Shown here in pieces: positions 2,727 to 45,561 of a stretch of DNA of 64,000 nt (position 1 is the stretch's first letter; every line of letters starts with the position of its first letter). Source of the stretch: Acinetobacter phage Phab24; the sequence record MZ477002.1; one strand, written 5' to 3'. The position numbers and the translations under genes were made by a program. The notes beneath the pieces are model-generated. The model worked only from the letters and a program-made list of their open reading frames with translations. It had not been told where the DNA came from and ran no database searches.

Positions 2727-3282
2727 GATGGATAAGAAAGCACTATTAGAACAGTTTGAAGCATTACCGCTTATGGTCGCAATTCTAAATGACAGATTCA
2801 TTTATGTGGATCAGACAAACGAATATGCACATCAGAATCTCGAAGATAATCGTGTGACATTAGGCTATGTAAATGGCGCTTGGTACGCGTTTCAGCACCA
2901 GCAAGCGAAAGTTTGTTCTTTGGAAGAACAGGTGGAGGAGCTGCAAAAGCAATTAAGTGAATACATATTTGTGGCTGAAACTATTGATGAAATGTATGTG
3001 AAAGAAGTCCAGAAAAGTGACGAGCTGCAAAAGCGGGTGGATGCAGCAAAGCAACTAATTGAAGATTTAAATAAGTGCTATCAACAAGATCATCAGAATA
3101 AATTTGAATATTGGCGTGGGTTTGCAGACAGCGCAGGAATTTTTGGAAAAAGATTAGAGCAAGCGCTCCACGGTGAATGCACACATGAGTCAGATGGCAG
3201 TTTTCTTCTTAGTAATCCACCAAGAACTAAATGCAAGAAGTGTGGTGAATTCTATTTTAAAGTACTCAAGGAGGAAGGATGA
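2719..3282 (+). CDS. hypothetical protein with NGAWYAxQ motif plus coiled coil
   Basis: ORF track. It shares the motif NGAWYA(F/W)Q followed by a coiled coil with the minus-strand ORF 26052..26504. C-terminal CxxC. Confidence 0.6.
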   Translation: MFEMDKKALLEQFEALPLMVAILNDRFIYVDQTNEYAHQNLEDNRVTLGYVNGAWYAFQHQQAKVCSLEEQVEELQKQLSEYIFVAETIDEMYVKEVQKSDELQKRVDAAKQLIEDLNKCYQQDHQNKFEYWRGFADSAGIFGKRLEQALHGECTHESDGSFLLSNPPRTKCKKCGEFYFKVLKEEG

Positions 3283-3638: not shown

Positions 3639-3747
3639 AGAGTATGAATTAATGAAAAGATGAACGGATTGGTCATTTGTTTGGCTTGTTATTGCTGGAA
3701 TTTGTGTTTTTATTCTTCTGGTGAAGAATTAATTAGAGGATGTCATA

Positions 3748-3993
3748 ATGAATAAATTAATTATCGTTATTTTAACTTTGATACTAACTGCATGTTCAAA
3801 GGAAACCAAGAACATATCAGAAAGATATCAACTACCAGAGGAATTGAGTGATTGTAAGGTGTACAGAATGAGAGATGAAGGAGGGAATGTTATAACTCTG
3901 GTTAGATGTCCTAATTCAAGCACAACTACGAGTTATACAAGATCAAGCGGTAAAAGTTCAAGTCGTTATAGTAACACGGTGGTTGAAAAATGA
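3748..3993 (+). CDS. putative lipoprotein (81 aa)
   Basis: Signal peptide with lipobox (ILTLILTAC | S). Confidence 0.55.
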   Translation: MNKLIIVILTLILTACSKETKNISERYQLPEELSDCKVYRMRDEGGNVITLVRCPNSSTTTSYTRSSGKSSSRYSNTVVEK

Positions 3994-4265: not shown

Positions 4266-4453
4266 TGAAATCAGAAAGAACAAGCCATACGGTGCAACGC
4301 ATTATTGTAGTGAACCGTATATTGGGTATTTTTATTTTGATTTCCAGTGGTTTGAGTGGGATGAGCGTGAAGATTGTTGGTTATCATTGCATTTTGACCC
4401 TAGAAAATATAGAGACATTAAACCGATTTATTAGGAGTGAAGATGGACATTGA
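4262..4453 (+). CDS. hypothetical protein (63 aa)
   Basis: ORF track. ATGA coupling. Hydrophobic core. Confidence 0.4.
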   Translation: MMKSERTSHTVQRIIVVNRILGIFILISSGLSGMSVKIVGYHCILTLENIETLNRFIRSEDGH

Positions 4454-4544: not shown

Positions 4545-5089
4545 TGGAAAGAGTATTTGTTAGACCAGTGGTCGGCTTTGAGAAAGAATATGTTGTATCA
4601 AATAGTGGTGATGTTTATTCGATTCCAAGAAAGGGGACATGGGTTTTAAAAAAACTAACACCTCAAATAAATCACAATGGATACAAGAGAGTAACACTGA
4701 CTAAAGGAGGTAAGAGAAACTACCTATTTATTCACAGAATAGTTGCAATAACATTTATTGATAACCCTTTAAATAAATCAACTGTTAATCATATTGATGG
4801 AGTAAAATTTAATAATAATTTGCTAAATCTAGAGTGGGCTACTCAATCAGAAAACACTCAACATGCGGTTGATAATAACCTTATTCGTAGAGCAAAGGGT
4901 GAGGATATGTCTAGAGTCTTGACAGAAAGCGACATTGTGGAAATATTGAGATTAAGGTCAAAAGGTATGACTCAAAAGGAAATAGGTGTGAAAATAGGTA
5001 GACCAACCTCAACAATACAATGCATACTTAATGGTAGGAGATGGTCTCACATAACAGGGATTAGATTTGGAATAGACAAGCCTCTTTAA
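4544..5089 (+). CDS. HNH homing endonuclease (NUMOD4 plus HNH_3) with C-terminal HTH
   Basis: YVVSNSGDVYS...GYKRV (NUMOD4-like), then HRIVAITFIDNP...VNHIDGVKFNNNLLNLEWATQSENTQH (HNH_3 signature). The C-terminal GMTQKEIGVKIGRPTSTIQ is a sigma-region-4-like HTH. Confidence 0.85.
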   Translation: MERVFVRPVVGFEKEYVVSNSGDVYSIPRKGTWVLKKLTPQINHNGYKRVTLTKGGKRNYLFIHRIVAITFIDNPLNKSTVNHIDGVKFNNNLLNLEWATQSENTQHAVDNNLIRRAKGEDMSRVLTESDIVEILRLRSKGMTQKEIGVKIGRPTSTIQCILNGRRWSHITGIRFGIDKPL

Positions 5090-6453: not shown

Positions 6454-6701
6454 ATTAAAATTAAATCATCGTAACGTATTAAGTCACGCTCTAATATTTC
6501 TTTCACACTGCGCAAATCATATCTGTTGACATGATGTAGAAAACTTTCTAAACGGTTTTGTACTTGAATCATTTCATCAATATCAGAACGTAATTCAAAT
6601 TTTCGACTAATTGTGCCATTATGACTTGTAAAGCGTAATTCTAATTTCATAGTATTGCCTTTGAGTTTTATCACTTCAATAAATTCATTATACAGAAACA
6701 A
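6441..6701 (-). CDS. hypothetical protein (86 aa; start may be internal M)
   Basis: ORF track. Confidence 0.45.
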   Translation of the reverse strand: MFLYNEFIEVIKLKGNTMKLELRFTSHNGTISRKFELRSDIDEMIQVQNRLESFLHHVNRYDLRSVKEILERDLIRYDDLILIWFS

Positions 6702-7015: not shown

Positions 7016-7289
7016 AAATACGTTGTAACCAGATCATAACATCATTACTGTTTTCTTTAATATCTAAATGCAACATAAAGAAATCATTTAATAAATCTTC
7101 AAAAGGTGTATCATAATCATACAACGCTTCATAGAACTCAACATCTTGTCTAAATGTGTAAATGTCCCTGTCATCTAACTCATCATTAACGGCAATAATG
7201 TCATTAATATTACGTAATGCTATCATTTTCCAGCGTTCTGTTTGATTAACAGATAAATAGTCAATAATTTCTTGCTTAGATAATTTCAT
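7008..7289 (-). CDS. hypothetical protein (93 aa)
   Basis: ORF track. Confidence 0.5.
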   Translation of the reverse strand: MKLSKQEIIDYLSVNQTERWKMIALRNINDIIAVNDELDDRDIYTFRQDVEFYEALYDYDTPFEDLLNDFFMLHLDIKENSNDVMIWLQRIYA

Positions 7290-7304
7290 GATGTATTACT
7301 CCGA

Positions 7305-7472
7305 TTAAACTTTATTAAACTTGTCGTTCAATTCTTTAGCTTTTAGTTCAGCTTTGGCTTTCGTTGATTCCACATAATATGTTCTAAAAGCTTTAGACTT
7401 AACTCGCCACACTTTTTTATTGGCTTTATTACTAAATCCTCTTTCAACATACCATAATTTAATATAGCTCAT
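7305..7472 (-). CDS. basic small protein (55 aa)
   Basis: Not in the ORF track. AAGGA RBS plus ATG. MSYIKLWYVERGFSNKANKKVWRVKSKAFR... Confidence 0.4.
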   Translation of the reverse strand: MSYIKLWYVERGFSNKANKKVWRVKSKAFRTYYVESTKAKAELKAKELNDKFNKV

Positions 7473-7491
7473 TGTCTTAAATCCTATTTTA

Positions 7492-7695
7492 TCAATTTAA
7501 ATCTAAAGTTAAAAAATCAGAAGAAACTAATATTTCAGCACCACTTAACAGTTTTATCACAAAGTAGTTTGGTTCAAATGTTTTTCGCAAAATAATAGCC
7601 TTGTGATCTAAACGTTTAAAATCTTTTGGTACACCTTTATAAATAACTTTATTGCCAACTTTATACATTTTTAAATACCTAAAATAAAGATTCAT
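7492..7695 (-). CDS. hypothetical protein (67 aa)
   Basis: ORF track. Confidence 0.45.
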   Translation of the reverse strand: MNLYFRYLKMYKVGNKVIYKGVPKDFKRLDHKAIILRKTFEPNYFVIKLLSGAEILVSSDFLTLDLN

Positions 7696-36414: not shown

Positions 36415-36491
36415 TGGCGCGCTGTACAGGGCTTGAACCTGTGACCATTCACTTAGAAGGCGAATGCTCTATCCAACTGAGCTAACAGCGC
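36415..36491 (-). tRNA. tRNA-Arg (anticodon UCU), CCA encoded
   Basis: Reverse complement GCGCTGT-TA-GCTC-AGTTGGATA-GAGC-A-TTCGC-CTTCTAA-GTGAA-TGGTC-ACAGG-TTCAAGC-CCTGT-ACAGCGC-G-CCA folds as a canonical cloverleaf with a TCT anticodon. Confidence 0.85.
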
Positions 36492-42218: not shown

Positions 42219-42371
42219 CTACTTAGTTTTCTTTTTCTCAAATGATGCTTGATATGTTGCAAACTGTAAAGCTGTATTAAATTGATCAGCTTTCTTTGTA
42301 TTCACATAAATTGCGTCAGAAACACTACCCATATCTAAAGTTAGCATTCCAATTTTAATTATTTTAGTCAT
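42219..42371 (-). CDS. hypothetical small protein (50 aa)
   Basis: Not in the ORF track. GGAGAAATAA RBS plus ATG at 42371. Confidence 0.4.
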   Translation of the reverse strand: MTKIIKIGMLTLDMGSVSDAIYVNTKKADQFNTALQFATYQASFEKKKTK

Positions 42372-42425
42372 TTATTTCTCCAAGAATTAGGAAGGGGCTT
42401 TTTGCCCCTTATTTAAGATTATTAT

Positions 42426-43442
42426 TTAAAACGGTAATGAATCATCCAAATCTTCATCAGTAACAACAGACTCTTTAACTTTGACCTCATCTTTCTTCAT
42501 AAAAGACTGAGGACGAACTTCAAGTAATTGAGCTTGAATAGCACTTCCTTCAAAGTTAGTAGCATTCTCAATTGTATTGATTACGTGCTTACGTAGTTCT
42601 TTCAAAGAATCTGCATCATTAACCTCATCAAACTGAATCAAATGTACTTTATCAACACTCTCTTCTTTTTGACCACGACCTAAAGCTCCAACAAAAGACA
42701 TTTTCTCCGTGTAATACTTCTTACCATCTTTACCAATTGTGTTCTTAATCTGAACTTTAAATTGCAATGTCTTACCAAGAAGTTTATCAATGTCTTGTGG
42801 AAGGAAAGCTTCCTCTTGCTTGATAATCTTAGCTGCTACTGCCATTTTATGTAAAACAGATTTTGGATTAAGTGACCAAACCTTTTCACCATCAACTTTT
42901 GAAATGTTTGTAACCTTCAAAGGTAATAAGTTTTGAATAATCATTTTCTTTTGGAAAGGATTATAGAATTGACCACCAGACCACAAACGTAATGGTTTAG
43001 TTTCACCAGAATCATCACCGAAGAATTGACCTTTGTCTAATTGGATTGATGGGAAATCAACAGCAAATGCAACCGATTGACGATCTTTCTGCTTTACAAA
43101 TTTCTTAATAATCCAATCTTTCTTTTGACCATCGTAAGCTTTAGCGAATTTAGTAATTTTACCGTACTGTTCATCATCAGGGAAGTTAGATGCTAATTGA
43201 TCTTTATACTTCTCCATTAACTCTTCAACAGTTAAATTCTCATCACCAGCATCAACATCATACTCTGAGTCAGGTTGTTTTTGATTACCTAAATCTACAA
43301 TTGCAGAAATTACACCAGTTAAAGTTTCTGGTTGTTCACACTCTGCTGTATCTATAATATATTGATTGAGAGCTTCGAAATTGACAGTTACTTTTGGTTT
43401 AGTTTCTGAACTTGTAGATGTATTATATGCGTTAAAAGCCAT
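42426..43442 (-). CDS. putative single-stranded DNA-binding protein
   Basis: 338 aa with the acidic C-terminal tail ...DEDLDDSLPF, like the E. coli SSB DDDIPF or phage gp2.5/gp32 acidic tails. It sits in the replication operon. AGGAGTAAATAAAATG RBS. Confidence 0.45.
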   Translation of the reverse strand: MAFNAYNTSTSSETKPKVTVNFEALNQYIIDTAECEQPETLTGVISAIVDLGNQKQPDSEYDVDAGDENLTVEELMEKYKDQLASNFPDDEQYGKITKFAKAYDGQKKDWIIKKFVKQKDRQSVAFAVDFPSIQLDKGQFFGDDSGETKPLRLWSGGQFYNPFQKKMIIQNLLPLKVTNISKVDGEKVWSLNPKSVLHKMAVAAKIIKQEEAFLPQDIDKLLGKTLQFKVQIKNTIGKDGKKYYTEKMSFVGALGRGQKEESVDKVHLIQFDEVNDADSLKELRKHVINTIENATNFEGSAIQAQLLEVRPQSFMKKDEVKVKESVVTDEDLDDSLPF

Positions 43443-43935
43443 TTTATTTACTCCTATTATTACACTCTTTGTGTTTTTATTTTAAATATTAATAGACGCT
43501 TTATGCGTTTTTTAATTGTGGAAGTGATAGTCTATTCCTATCAGCCACCGAGCTGAATAACTCAGAATTAATACAAGCATCAATCGGGATTTCATGCCCC
43601 AACCTATTTTCAACTCATACTAAAATCAACCAATTCTGTATAACACAAATGTCACACAATGCAGGTTGTTGCACTTGGTAGTAGTTGCCAGTCTATTCCT
43701 AGCAGTCAAAACAAGTAACCGACCACATAAGCAATCCTCTATACAGAATAAATCACTTGTTTAATAGATTGATCGGCAACGTGCGAATAGTTGCTGGGTT
43801 GTTTCAAATAGCGCTTCTAATGCCACCCTATTGCTAATGGATACTGTCTCGCCCACAGATTCGATCAATCTAGATAAGTATTATTGCAAACATAAATTCC
43901 ATTGTCAACAATAACAATGTTAAGAAATGTTAATG

Positions 43936-44958
43936 TTATCCATTAATATCCTCAAGAAGTCCTTTTACTGCACGATTTACTTCTTCTTTGTCATTCCAAT
44001 AAATAGCATTTAACAATACGTACTTCCACCCTTTTGAGAATTTTAACACTTTGTGTATATTCTTCTCATCCTCAAGAGATGTTTCACTAATAAAGATTGG
44101 AATGTGATTGTTAATACCAAACTCAGAGTACCAAAGAGCTTTGCTCAGCTCTTGAACATCATCGTCTTTCTTACCGACTCTCCAACAATATTTTAAAACA
44201 TTACCGTAAACAAAAGACATATTCTTTGTAATATCAATACATTCAACACCACTCTCATCTGAAGTGTAGTGTTTAGGTTTATTAACTACATCGTCTACTG
44301 GTTTGTCTTGCTTTTCTACATACGGTTTAATAACATCAGAATCACCTTTACGAAGCAGAACAAGATCGTCAATATGGTAGACGAAAATATCATTCTCAAC
44401 TGTCACACCATAAATACCATCAACTTTCATTGATTCTCCGACCTGTTTCATATTCTTGTTCCAATCATACATATCCGTTGTATTTTTCTTAGAAACAATA
44501 CGTACAATATCACAAGTTTCAATTTTCTCTTTTTCAACTACAACATCTAATTGTAAATCACCAGCATTAATCCAAATTGAAGCCTCCTCAAAGTCAACAA
44601 GAATAGGGTTATAAGTACCACCATCATTTTCACGTACAGTACCTTTGATACCTTCTTTTAAATTATAATATTGTGCATTATCAGCACGAGCGTTAGTTAA
44701 AATAACTTTATCACCAGCTTTCAATTCACCAACTTTATTTTCAACATCTTCTTCAACCAATTTAATACCCTCCTCACTAAACCATAAACCATTATCACCA
44801 GTTTTGATAGCATCTAACTTCACAAAATATGGAACACCATCACCAACATCGGATGCAATATCGACAACACCAATATCACCAATGTTAGCTCCATGCTCCG
44901 ATGCTACAGAACTAATAAACTCTACAACCTCTACTTTATCACCTTTTTTATATTTCAT
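43936..44958 (-). CDS. DUF3310-domain protein (340 aa)
   Basis: C-terminal KPKHYTSDESGVECIDITKNMSFVYGNVLKYCWRVGKK matches the DUF3310 signature (HY..IE.IDI....GN.lKY..R.G.K). Confidence 0.55.
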   Translation of the reverse strand: MKYKKGDKVEVVEFISSVASEHGANIGDIGVVDIASDVGDGVPYFVKLDAIKTGDNGLWFSEEGIKLVEEDVENKVGELKAGDKVILTNARADNAQYYNLKEGIKGTVRENDGGTYNPILVDFEEASIWINAGDLQLDVVVEKEKIETCDIVRIVSKKNTTDMYDWNKNMKQVGESMKVDGIYGVTVENDIFVYHIDDLVLLRKGDSDVIKPYVEKQDKPVDDVVNKPKHYTSDESGVECIDITKNMSFVYGNVLKYCWRVGKKDDDVQELSKALWYSEFGINNHIPIFISETSLEDEKNIHKVLKFSKGWKYVLLNAIYWNDKEEVNRAVKGLLEDING

Positions 44959-45111
44959 ACTAAATCTCCTTTAACGAAAAAATTCAAGCAACTTATCTGC
45001 TTGTTCAATGTAATAACTGTAATTAATATCCCACTTGAAATCATTAATATTATTACATGTCTTTACTTTAATACCACTCTCAATACTCATGCGTCTATCG
45101 AGATTGCTGTA

Positions 45112-45561
45112 TTAATGGCATTGGTACTTTCGCAAATACTTTAATGCGCTTTCAATAAGTGTCTCAGAATCGTTAAAAAATCCCAACCCTCTGTTGCAGC
45201 TACCGCAAAGAAGTCCTCTTACCTTGCCTGTATCATGATCATGGTCTACACAAGCTCTAGACTTAGTCCTCTTCCTTTCTGTTGCAAACTCAATATCTGT
45301 CATCGGCTCTGTGCAAATTTTACACTTGCCAGATTGAGAATTCCACATTAACATATATTCTTCTCGCGTTATTCCATAGCATCGTTTCCAATTCTGTTCT
45401 CTTTGCAGTCTTAATACATGCTCTCTATTGTTCTCTCTGTACTTACGCCTCGCCTCTTTATCGCAAGAAATACAACGGCTCTCTTTTCCATCCTTACTTC
45501 TCTTTAAATTGTAGAAGTCGTGCAAAGACTTTACTTCTTTGCACACACGACATTTTTTCAA
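45112..45561 (-). CDS. recombination endonuclease VII (T4 gp49-like Holliday-junction resolvase)
   Basis: N-terminal CRVC...CISC zinc site, and ACVDHDHDTGKVRGLLCGSCNRGLG. Confidence 0.8.
   Translation of the reverse strand: MKKCRVCKEVKSLHDFYNLKRSKDGKESRCISCDKEARRKYRENNREHVLRLQREQNWKRCYGITREEYMLMWNSQSGKCKICTEPMTDIEFATERKRTKSRACVDHDHDTGKVRGLLCGSCNRGLGFFNDSETLIESALKYLRKYQCH

Follow-up and report, generated by a model that had tools for sequence, protein, structure and literature searches.

What occupies the gene-free gap at positions 43443-43935 of Acinetobacter phage Phab24? We analysed a 64,000-nucleotide stretch of this phage (sequence record MZ477002.1; hereafter, the window), in which the gap lies between the stop codon of a DUF3310 gene (43936) and the ATG of the next gene (43442), both read from the minus strand. 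An earlier sequence-only reading had placed the gap between these two genes, which the open reading frame (ORF) listing and Pfam bear out, and had suggested either a structured non-coding RNA or long leader, or an origin of replication. Our results support a structured RNA, on the evidence of the minus-strand fold, a promoter, recurring modules and compensatory base changes, and speak against an origin. With slightly more belief than doubt, we read the gap as encoding a promoter-driven, polycistronic precursor of small RNAs, in which a short hairpin, here named H, would mark the 3′ ends of the modules.

The gap has no coding potential. No ORF within it starts with ATG, and the longest reach 32-35 aa from TTG starts; the earlier claim of no ORF of 30 aa or more was thus slightly too strong, although nothing coding-like is present. 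The marks of a protein-coding gene (a conserved ORF, a start codon with a ribosome-binding site, annotation in relatives) are not found, and the records of the related phages BS46, RM_A1 and AB2 carry no annotated coding sequence in this region. The minus strand, which is the gene strand, folds with a z-score of -2.57 relative to shuffled sequence, against -0.26 for the plus strand.

The core of the argument is H. The near-direct repeat that had been noticed at 43524 and 43688 (spacing 164) is real, and we place it at 43529-43547 and 43690-43708: 19 nt, 89% identical, with a spacing of 161. A 20-mer search allowing up to three mismatches found these two sites against 0 expected. Each copy folds as a hairpin, so the repeat amounts to two copies of H. 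As we define it, this motif lies in a gene-free gap, on the strand that is transcribed, and consists of a UGAC box and, 0-1 nt further on, a stem of 4-6 bp capped by a GAA(N)AGW loop. H1, the first copy along the transcribed strand, has every one of these elements and scored highest in the window (21.5 bits, E=0.004) with a covariance model derived from an alignment of 34 H variants. H2 has the stem, loop and context but a UGGC box; a C-G pair of the H1 stem is replaced by A-U, and the orthologue of H2 in BS46 is nearly identical and has UGAC.

The stem of H covaries on the sense strand. A search with a relaxed stem recovered many different stems (among them GCCAC/GUGGC, GCCCG/CGGGC, GUAUG/CAUAC and AAAAG/CUUUU) around a constant loop and UGAC box, with 0 matches on reversed or complemented control sequence. 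For a pairing-free test we took 41 TGAC-N5-7-GAAAGA sites, none of which had been retrieved via a CTAG pattern: at least four flanking pairs were present in 25 of the 41, compared with 2.7 for shuffled partners and 0 of 27 on control strands. Across the 34 variants, 81% of cells are paired (60% after shuffling), all six pairs vary on both sides, and the covariation score is 0.535 against 0.175 for shuffled alignments, a value reached by 0 of 500 of them, while slid registers gave 0.15 or less. G·U cells outnumber A·C cells 17 to 3, which points to pairing on the sense strand, as expected for RNA; the same asymmetry disfavours H as a DNA operator palindrome.

H is specific to phages. Its commonest form, GACTGCTAGGAA(N)AGACTAGCA, occurs exactly (as a 20-21-mer) in 85 IMG/VR viral contigs with unrelated flanks, but in only 5 of 185,579 species-representative bacterial and archaeal genomes: an Alistipes, an Acinetobacter metagenome-assembled genome (MAG), a Clostridia MAG, a Lutibacter and a Bacteroidota MAG. 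Hairpins of the H type are found in more than 100 unrelated phage contigs. Cultured carriers include Acinetobacter phages, Vibrio phages (the Schitoviridae VBP32 and VBP47; K248-250; HNL01) and the Cellulophaga phages phi19:3 and phi13:2. In Rfam no family matches H, the 42 related H-containing loci that we scanned yielding only tRNA and GOLLD, and the literature searched, including the Weinberg 2017 motif paper, gave no match to H or to a similar motif. This widespread phage motif therefore appears not to have been described before. The loop with its closing pair, GGAAAGAC (43699-43691 in the window, and in all other copies), also occurs in the 23S rRNA of E. coli (...GACGGAAAGACC...), a match that held in 5426 of 5426 genomes of the species; the stretch presumably corresponds to positions 2056-2063 at the peptidyl-transferase/macrolide site. 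This 8-nt match may be due to chance, and loop-insertion variants break it.

The placement of H is equally regular. Outside ORFs of at least 100 aa lie 152 of 164 non-redundant copies, and 94 of 111 copies sit in gaps of at least 300 nt. The flanking ORFs are on the same strand as H in most cases (117/128 upstream, 116/131 downstream), as are the tRNAs in H loci (150 on the same strand, 5 opposite). Thirteen copies end 2-9 nt ahead of a tRNA 5′ end, with only two at 13-100 nt. Directly 3′ of H there is an intrinsic terminator in four loci (L127, L163, L164 and L199) and a canonical type-I hammerhead core in two (L063 and L201); in further copies the next module comes at once, or a start codon lies 20-40 nt on. 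Throughout the arrays that we inspected, H closes or separates modules and is never the first element past the promoter.

Several of these loci are of interest in themselves. The hammerhead cores, 2-3 nt past H at ~1612-1660 of L201 (an Acinetobacter MAG contig) and ~1122-1170 of L063, read CCCAU CUGAUGAG stem-II CGAAAC stem-III GUC^AUGGG, and Rfam reported neither at E<0.5. The module before H contains GAAAGGAGGUGAUC or GAAAGCGAGGUGAUCC in L199 (~6520-6620), L164 (~4610-4710) and L127 (minus strand, upstream of H at 4356-4375), sequences that we take to be near-perfect complements of the 16S rRNA 3′ end. H and an intrinsic terminator then follow, with no gene, and these modules could be ribosome-directed small RNAs. 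Between tRNA-Cys and H of Cellulophaga phage phi19:3 (L206, 2400-2500) there are isolated T-arm-like hairpins, GCAGUUCGAUUCUGC and GGGGUUCGAAUCCCC, with no complete tRNA.

A number of other roles for H were considered and rejected. Terminators and start codons follow directly and no -10 pattern is seen, which excludes a phage RNA-polymerase promoter or a sigma-70 -35 box. H sits outside ORFs, unlike a SECIS element or a stop-codon readthrough signal (UGA-C plus hairpin), and a three-frame stop would be lost in 7-nt-loop and other stem variants. Mimicry of a CRISPR repeat is at odds with the identical sequence across phages of different host phyla, and H is also unlike the Acinetobacter type I-F CRISPR repeat. 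The terminator scan did not call H1 or H2 as an intrinsic terminator (a GC-rich stem, then a U tract); over 157 copies, U is mildly enriched at +3 to +5, and a minority of copies elsewhere have U tracts. No further conserved element was found up to 60 nt away from H, and this speaks against a catalytic core of several helices; the region and related loci also gave no Rfam ribozyme match.

On the minus strand of the window, H1 and H2 are part of an array in the order M1, M2, H1, M3a, M3b, h2, H2 (Table 1), whose modules were delimited by all-against-all comparison. The array is preceded by the sigma-70-type promoter that the sequence-only reading had proposed. The site holds up well: it matches 11 of 12 consensus positions, has the extended TG, and is the top site in 42300-45200. 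Transcription is predicted to start near 43873, and the -10 element ends 8 nt ahead of the M1 closing stem. The promoter is kept in BS46, and RM_A1 has its own TTGTAT/TATTAT pair immediately before M1.

Table 1 Features of the gap and its promoter, listed in the direction of the minus strand
Feature	Position	Strand	Description
Sigma-70-type promoter	43908-43880	-	TTGACA 43908-43903, 17-nt spacer, TG-extended AATAAT 43885-43880
M1	43765-43872	-	Cloverleaf-like four-way junction, beginning about at the predicted transcription start
M2	43709-43764	-	Long hairpin AAACAAGUGA ... UUACUUGUUU, predicted in the minimum free energy fold
H1 (H copy 1)	43686-43708	-	UGAC + UGCUAG / GAAUAGA / CUGGCA, one U·G pair
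M3a	43624-43685	-	Predicted hairpins
M3b	43568-43623	-	Long hairpin, outer stem UUAGUAUGAGU / GCUUGUAUUAA, conserved apex UUGGGGCAUGAAAUCCCGAUUGAUG
h2	43548-43565	-	Hairpin CUGAG-UUAUUCAG-CUCGG
H2 (H copy 2)	43525-43547	-	UGGC (not UGAC) + UGAUAG / GAAUAGA / CUAUCA
Array tail and 5′ untranslated region of next gene	43443-43524	-	97.5% identical to BS46
Weak hairpin	~43510-43494	-	ACGC-AUAAA-GCGU, in the array tail
Weaker second promoter-like site	43485-43456	-	Directly before the downstream gene
Shine-Dalgarno	43455-43451	-	AGGAG, then ATG 43442

The apex of M3b, UUGGGGCAUGMAAYCCCGAUUGAUG, is kept in 7 variants from Obolenskvirus, Herod-like phages and IMG/VR contigs, whereas the outer stem has four unrelated sequences among them, and RNAalifold found compensatory changes in 11 of 25 pairs. 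Together with the H stem, these are the compensatory changes that the sequence-only reading had suggested looking for in related phages. The stem of h2 also covaries between phages (CUAGG/CUUAG, GAUAG/CUAUC, GGCA/UGCC) around a conserved loop; this was read from the sequences, the alignment register having left h2 without an RNAalifold prediction. A scan of IMG/VR for the h2-H junction gave no matches. M3a was found only in RM_A1 and RM_A2 (88.5% over 191 nt together with M3b) and is absent from BS46. M2 is shared with BS46, within a 269-nt alignment of 84% identity overall, and RM_A1 carries a different module in its place; few homologues of M2 exist.

The closing stem of M1 (43872-43862 paired with 43775-43765) is an 11-nt inverted repeat, I1, of 100% complementarity. 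It encloses a 5′ hairpin, CUGU-GGGCGAG-ACAG (43858-43844), a hypervariable middle (~43843-43795) and a 3′ hairpin, GCAAC-UAUUCGCAC-GUUGC (43794-43776), which is contiguous with the closing stem, much as the T-arm abuts the acceptor stem in tRNA. Eight variants share ends of ~26 nt around unrelated middles of 30-80 nt, and for most of them the predicted fold is again this junction. Their thermodynamic z-scores, from +0.1 to -2.0, are weak, and a single compensatory change was seen, in BS46. We judged M1 against the features of a tRNA: a 7-bp acceptor stacked on a 5-bp T stem, a 7-nt T loop, the GG of the D-arm and a 7-nt anticodon loop. M1 has the contiguous 7+5 stem, but with a 9-nt 'T' loop, a 5-nt 'D' loop and a variable arm of 30-80 nt, and ARAGORN and Rfam were both negative, so that M1 is at most tRNA-shaped. 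A long-range pairing of 43749-43740 with 43642-43633 was rejected, as neither BS46 nor RM_A1 supports it.

Known RNA families offered no further identification. The gap contains no tRNA by ARAGORN or by the Rfam tRNA model (E<10); the only tRNA of the window is at 36415-36491, and the corresponding Rfam tRNA-Arg match (36418-36491) is the sole one at gathering score in the 64 kb. The covariance-model search proposed earlier was run with Rfam 15 on 43300-44100, and at E≤10 it returned only two chance-level matches, both outside the RNA core, in which no family matched. Possible antisense targets of the gap RNA within the window do not exceed 14 nt, which is chance level, and a plasmid database gave no match. 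The GC content had been overstated at 42-45% against ~30%: we measured 34.9% for the gap (72nd percentile of equal-sized windows), 39.9% for the core at 43525-43870 (94th percentile) and 33.2% for the whole window.

Conservation in relatives, the lack of which the sequence-only reading would have taken as refutation, is strong. An 801-nt query comprising the gap and the flanking gene ends is ~90% identical to BS46 where aligned, and blastn matched pieces of the gap to gene-free gaps in 39 Acinetobacter phage records of unrelated groups: the 45-kb Obolenskvirus (AB2, AP22, IME-Ap7, RM_A1 and others), the 97-102-kb Herod/Ab15/AM24 group, where the match is at the head of a tRNA array, and BS46. 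The module pieces recur at 76-95% identity in BS46, Obolenskvirus and Herod-like phages. Reading frames are broken because the modules form a mosaic.

The comparison with BS46 shows how this mosaic is arranged. The two sequences are alike from the promoter as far as 43685, one base past H1, and again from 43547, where H2 begins. In the stretch that separates these positions the window carries M3a-M3b-h2 (137 nt) and BS46 two other modules, M4 and M5 (366 nt), of which M4 is common to AB2 and M5 to Herod. The whole segment between the two H copies has thus been swapped, with H1 as the left and H2 as the right breakpoint, and the H copies are the borders of an exchanged cassette.

M4, which is absent from the window, was located at ~3422-3590 of L001 (BS46), 3173-3340 of L003 (AB2), ~1590-1745 of L220 (IME-Ap7) and 3258-3410 of L004 (Herod). 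Immediately 3′ of H, a leader/trailer stem of 16-17 bp (AAYUUAGAGAAGUGAA ... UUCACUUCAUCUAAGUU) is conserved and encloses variable cargo: a true tRNA-Lys in Herod, a short non-tRNA stretch in Ab15, and in IME-Ap7 a tRNA-like element (Rfam tRNA, 45 bits; a 6-nt anticodon loop by reading) that ARAGORN missed. M5, a structured RNA of ~150 nt without a match in Rfam, has 94% identity between its copies in BS46 (L001 ~3650-3790) and Herod (L004 ~3095-3235); in diverged Obolenskvirus copies (L220, L221) its stems are fully compensatory (AGACG/CGUCU vs UCUCG/CGAGA). BS46 (MN276049) has a second gene-free RNA stretch at 7270-7686, after tRNA-Tyr and tRNA-Leu, in which a third H (7500-7518) is followed by the M4 stem and a tRNA-like element ending in CCA. 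Unannotated GOLLD RNAs (RF02032) lie inside the tRNA arrays of Herod (L004 4225-4593, 225 bits), ~1 kb downstream of the H-punctuated modules, and of Ab15 (L222 2582-2947, 219 bits). Tiny 'hypothetical proteins' of 29-48 aa are annotated over modules in Ab15 (L222 1349-1495, 1775-1864 and 2010-2108) and several Obolenskvirus; these gene calls are probably spurious.

How might such an array work? In the reading that we favour, a primary transcript would start near 43873, comprise M1, M2, H1, M3a, M3b, h2 and H2, and probably continue into the mRNA of the next gene. H would form the 3′ edge of a module, with the RNA 3′ end made just past it by RNase P acting on a following tRNA, by a hammerhead ribozyme, by a terminator or by another endonuclease. 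Each module would be released as a small stable RNA terminating in H, which may both shield the RNA end and act as a handle. The strict conservation of the loop and UGAC box across host phyla suggests recognition by a conserved factor. H sequences would double as the cassette borders at which phages exchange modules.

Several observations weigh against this interpretation. L162 has a lone H between two tRNAs, where there is no small RNA module whose 3′ end it could tag. The strictness of the conserved UGAC and loop exceeds what a simple block to exonucleases needs, so something else must be recognised, and yet no protein family is common to more than 10 of the 96 H loci and no candidate H-binding protein was found. 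In the window itself, H2 with its UGGC box is non-significant on its own against the H model (12.1 bits, E=1, third-best), covariation in M1 and M2 is slight or absent, and the fold of M1 is no more stable than that of shuffled sequence. Finally, the H alignment was partly retrieved by a pattern that already contained the CTAG...CTAG stem.

A bolder version of the same idea, which we put forward only tentatively, is that H is a cross-phylum phage RNA signal that sets the ends and fates of small RNAs and tRNAs, with the modules as exchangeable payloads traded at H borders. The reader of the signal would then be a universal host machine (for instance RNase P, RNA polymerase with Nus factors, or a 3′ exonuclease) or a phage protein, and the payloads might be anti-defence or host-takeover RNAs, traded among phages of one host. 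The hypervariable arm of M1 and the tRNA-like cargos hint, as a speculation, at a role in a tRNA or anti-defence arms race.

Alternatively, H itself could be the functional unit, as a protein-binding hairpin present in one or many copies. It might serve as a sponge or decoy that titrates a conserved host factor or a defence nuclease, in the way of the CsrB/RsmZ hairpin arrays, or it might recruit a factor as boxB does, for instance to allow antitermination in untranslated RNA. We think this rather unlikely, but several observations favour it. The loop and UGAC box are kept while the stems vary freely, and the lone H of L162 is readily accommodated. Copies with different stems also occur in tight clusters with little between them, in L034 (back-to-back), L053, L137 and L142 (28-30 nt gaps). 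Loop insertion is tolerated solely at position 4, which would fit a GNRA-like fold with an extruded base, as in lambda boxB, and the loop region contains GGA, the core of CsrA sites. On the other hand, the window holds only two copies, 161 nt apart, no co-occurring protein family was found around the 96 loci, and the placement 2-9 nt ahead of tRNA 5′ ends is left unexplained. N-type antiterminators are known only in lambdoid phages, and CsrA is not known from all of the host phyla involved.

The region could also be chiefly a cis-acting 5′ leader that regulates the downstream gene. This gene, called SSB-like (single-stranded DNA-binding protein) in the sequence-only reading, encodes 338 aa and matches phrog_2544, of unknown function. 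Neither Pfam nor PHROGs backs the label, and the acidic C-terminus, ...DLDDSLPF, is the sole feature that resembles an SSB tail. The array is on the same strand as the gene, and the last 82 nt, including the Shine-Dalgarno, are 97.5% conserved with BS46. The terminator scan found no clear minus-strand terminator ahead of ATG 43442 (the tail hairpin was flagged on the plus strand only), so the RNA may also physically be the leader of that gene. It is not a dedicated one, however, because BS46 has the same downstream gene but M4 and M5 in place of M3, and the same modules elsewhere precede unrelated genes, lie in tRNA arrays or, as in Obolenskvirus, form stand-alone units with their own promoter and a clear intrinsic terminator. 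A second promoter-like site directly ahead of the gene also argues against a leader function, which we consider unlikely.

The mosaic structure, with a swap exactly at the H copies, might also be expected of decaying or selfish DNA, such as the relic of a tRNA array or a recombination scar in which H is a DNA-level hotspot or linker for cassette exchange. The hypervariable middle and weak folding statistics of M1 would suit this explanation, as would the tRNA fragments and tRNA-like pieces in related arrays. Against it stand the covariation and the excess of G·U over A·C, both of which point to pairing in RNA, the co-orientation of ~90% of copies with genes and of 150 of 155 nearby tRNAs, the conserved promoter ahead of M1, and a loop sequence kept across phages of different host phyla. 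We therefore regard it as a poor candidate. An origin of replication, for which the position in a replication gene block and the inverted repeats might speak, is highly improbable. Iterons and an AT-rich unwinding element are lacking, and H and the M1 stem account for the repeats. GC exceeds the average of the window, and cumulative GC skew passes straight through the gap without inflection. Other phages carry the same modules amid structural or tRNA genes, and BS46 has an annotated replication-initiator gene ~9 kb away.

Two neighbouring genes complete the picture of the locus. The DUF3310 assignment rests on Pfam PF11753 (E=3e-15). Between the DNA polymerase and DUF3310 genes, the window has a 149-aa Endonuclease_7 (HNH-like) ORF (45112-45561, minus strand; Pfam E=1.7e-21). 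In BS46 the two genes are adjacent, and the ORF is therefore probably a homing-endonuclease insertion.

Phage genomes are annotated nearly exclusively for proteins and tRNAs, and large gene-free gaps are usually ignored, or filled with spurious tiny ORFs as in some of the records above. As the Phab24 gap illustrates, arrays of structured RNAs that are portable and driven by a promoter can reside there, and UGAC-stem-GAA(N)AGA provides a simple marker for them in phages of Proteobacteria and Bacteroidota and in one Clostridia-assigned bin. Exchange of cassettes at H borders may be one way in which RNA payloads pass between unrelated phages of a single host. The reader of H, once found, would reveal how phages process or protect small RNAs and tRNAs, and would provide a handle on the stable RNAs of T4 and T5.

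Among known systems, the locus belongs with the phage arrays of stable small RNAs, and its closest precedent is the set of stable RNAs from the T5 tRNA region (RNAI, RNAIII, RNAIV, RNA1, RNA2, RNA2H, RNA3 and RNAX), whose function is unknown according to the T5 record. Like these, the modules are phage-encoded, lie in gene-free stretches co-oriented with tRNAs and are in some cases tRNA-like, and related Acinetobacter arrays head tRNA clusters. There is, however, no sequence similarity, the T5 tRNA region lacks H, and the array in the window is not beside any tRNA. The T4 species 1 and 2 RNAs are presumably similar. GOLLD, ROOL and the Y RNAs (YrlA) likewise occur in phage or prophage contexts near tRNAs, and GOLLD is present in the Herod and Ab15 arrays; none of the three has an Rfam match in the window or the modules. 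M4 in the relatives resembles a Y RNA in having a long stem around a tRNA-like domain, again without a YrlA match.

For H itself, four comparisons are instructive. The lambda boxB, the site of the N antiterminator, has a 5-6 bp stem and a purine-rich loop that starts with GAA and ends with A, with a short box before it. H is alike in stem, loop type, upstream box and presence in early or untranslated phage RNA, but differs in its loop of 6-7 nt rather than 5, in having UGAC rather than boxA, in its multiple copies per transcript and in its occurrence in non-lambdoid phages of several host phyla. With the CsrB/RsmZ sponge RNAs it shares repeated hairpins with freely varying stems and a conserved, GGA-containing loop; unlike them, it conserves UGAC and the full GAAAGA loop, often occurs in only 1-3 copies, is tightly linked to tRNA 5′ ends and has a host range that may exceed that of CsrA. 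The PeSL (promoter-early stem-loop) cassettes of T4-type phages, reportedly described by Arbiol and colleagues in 2010, are also bounded by a short intergenic motif that flanks exchangeable cassettes and marks recombination breakpoints. PeSLs flank protein-coding ORFs and include a promoter, whereas H flanks non-coding modules and is followed by no -10/-35 pattern. The 3′ stem-loop of histone mRNAs is a fixed-size hairpin with a conserved flank at an RNA 3′ end, where it is recognised as a tag for processing and stability. This element is found in eukaryotes and bears no sequence relationship to H, and we liken H to it purely as an analogy of how a hairpin at a putative RNA 3′ end might work.

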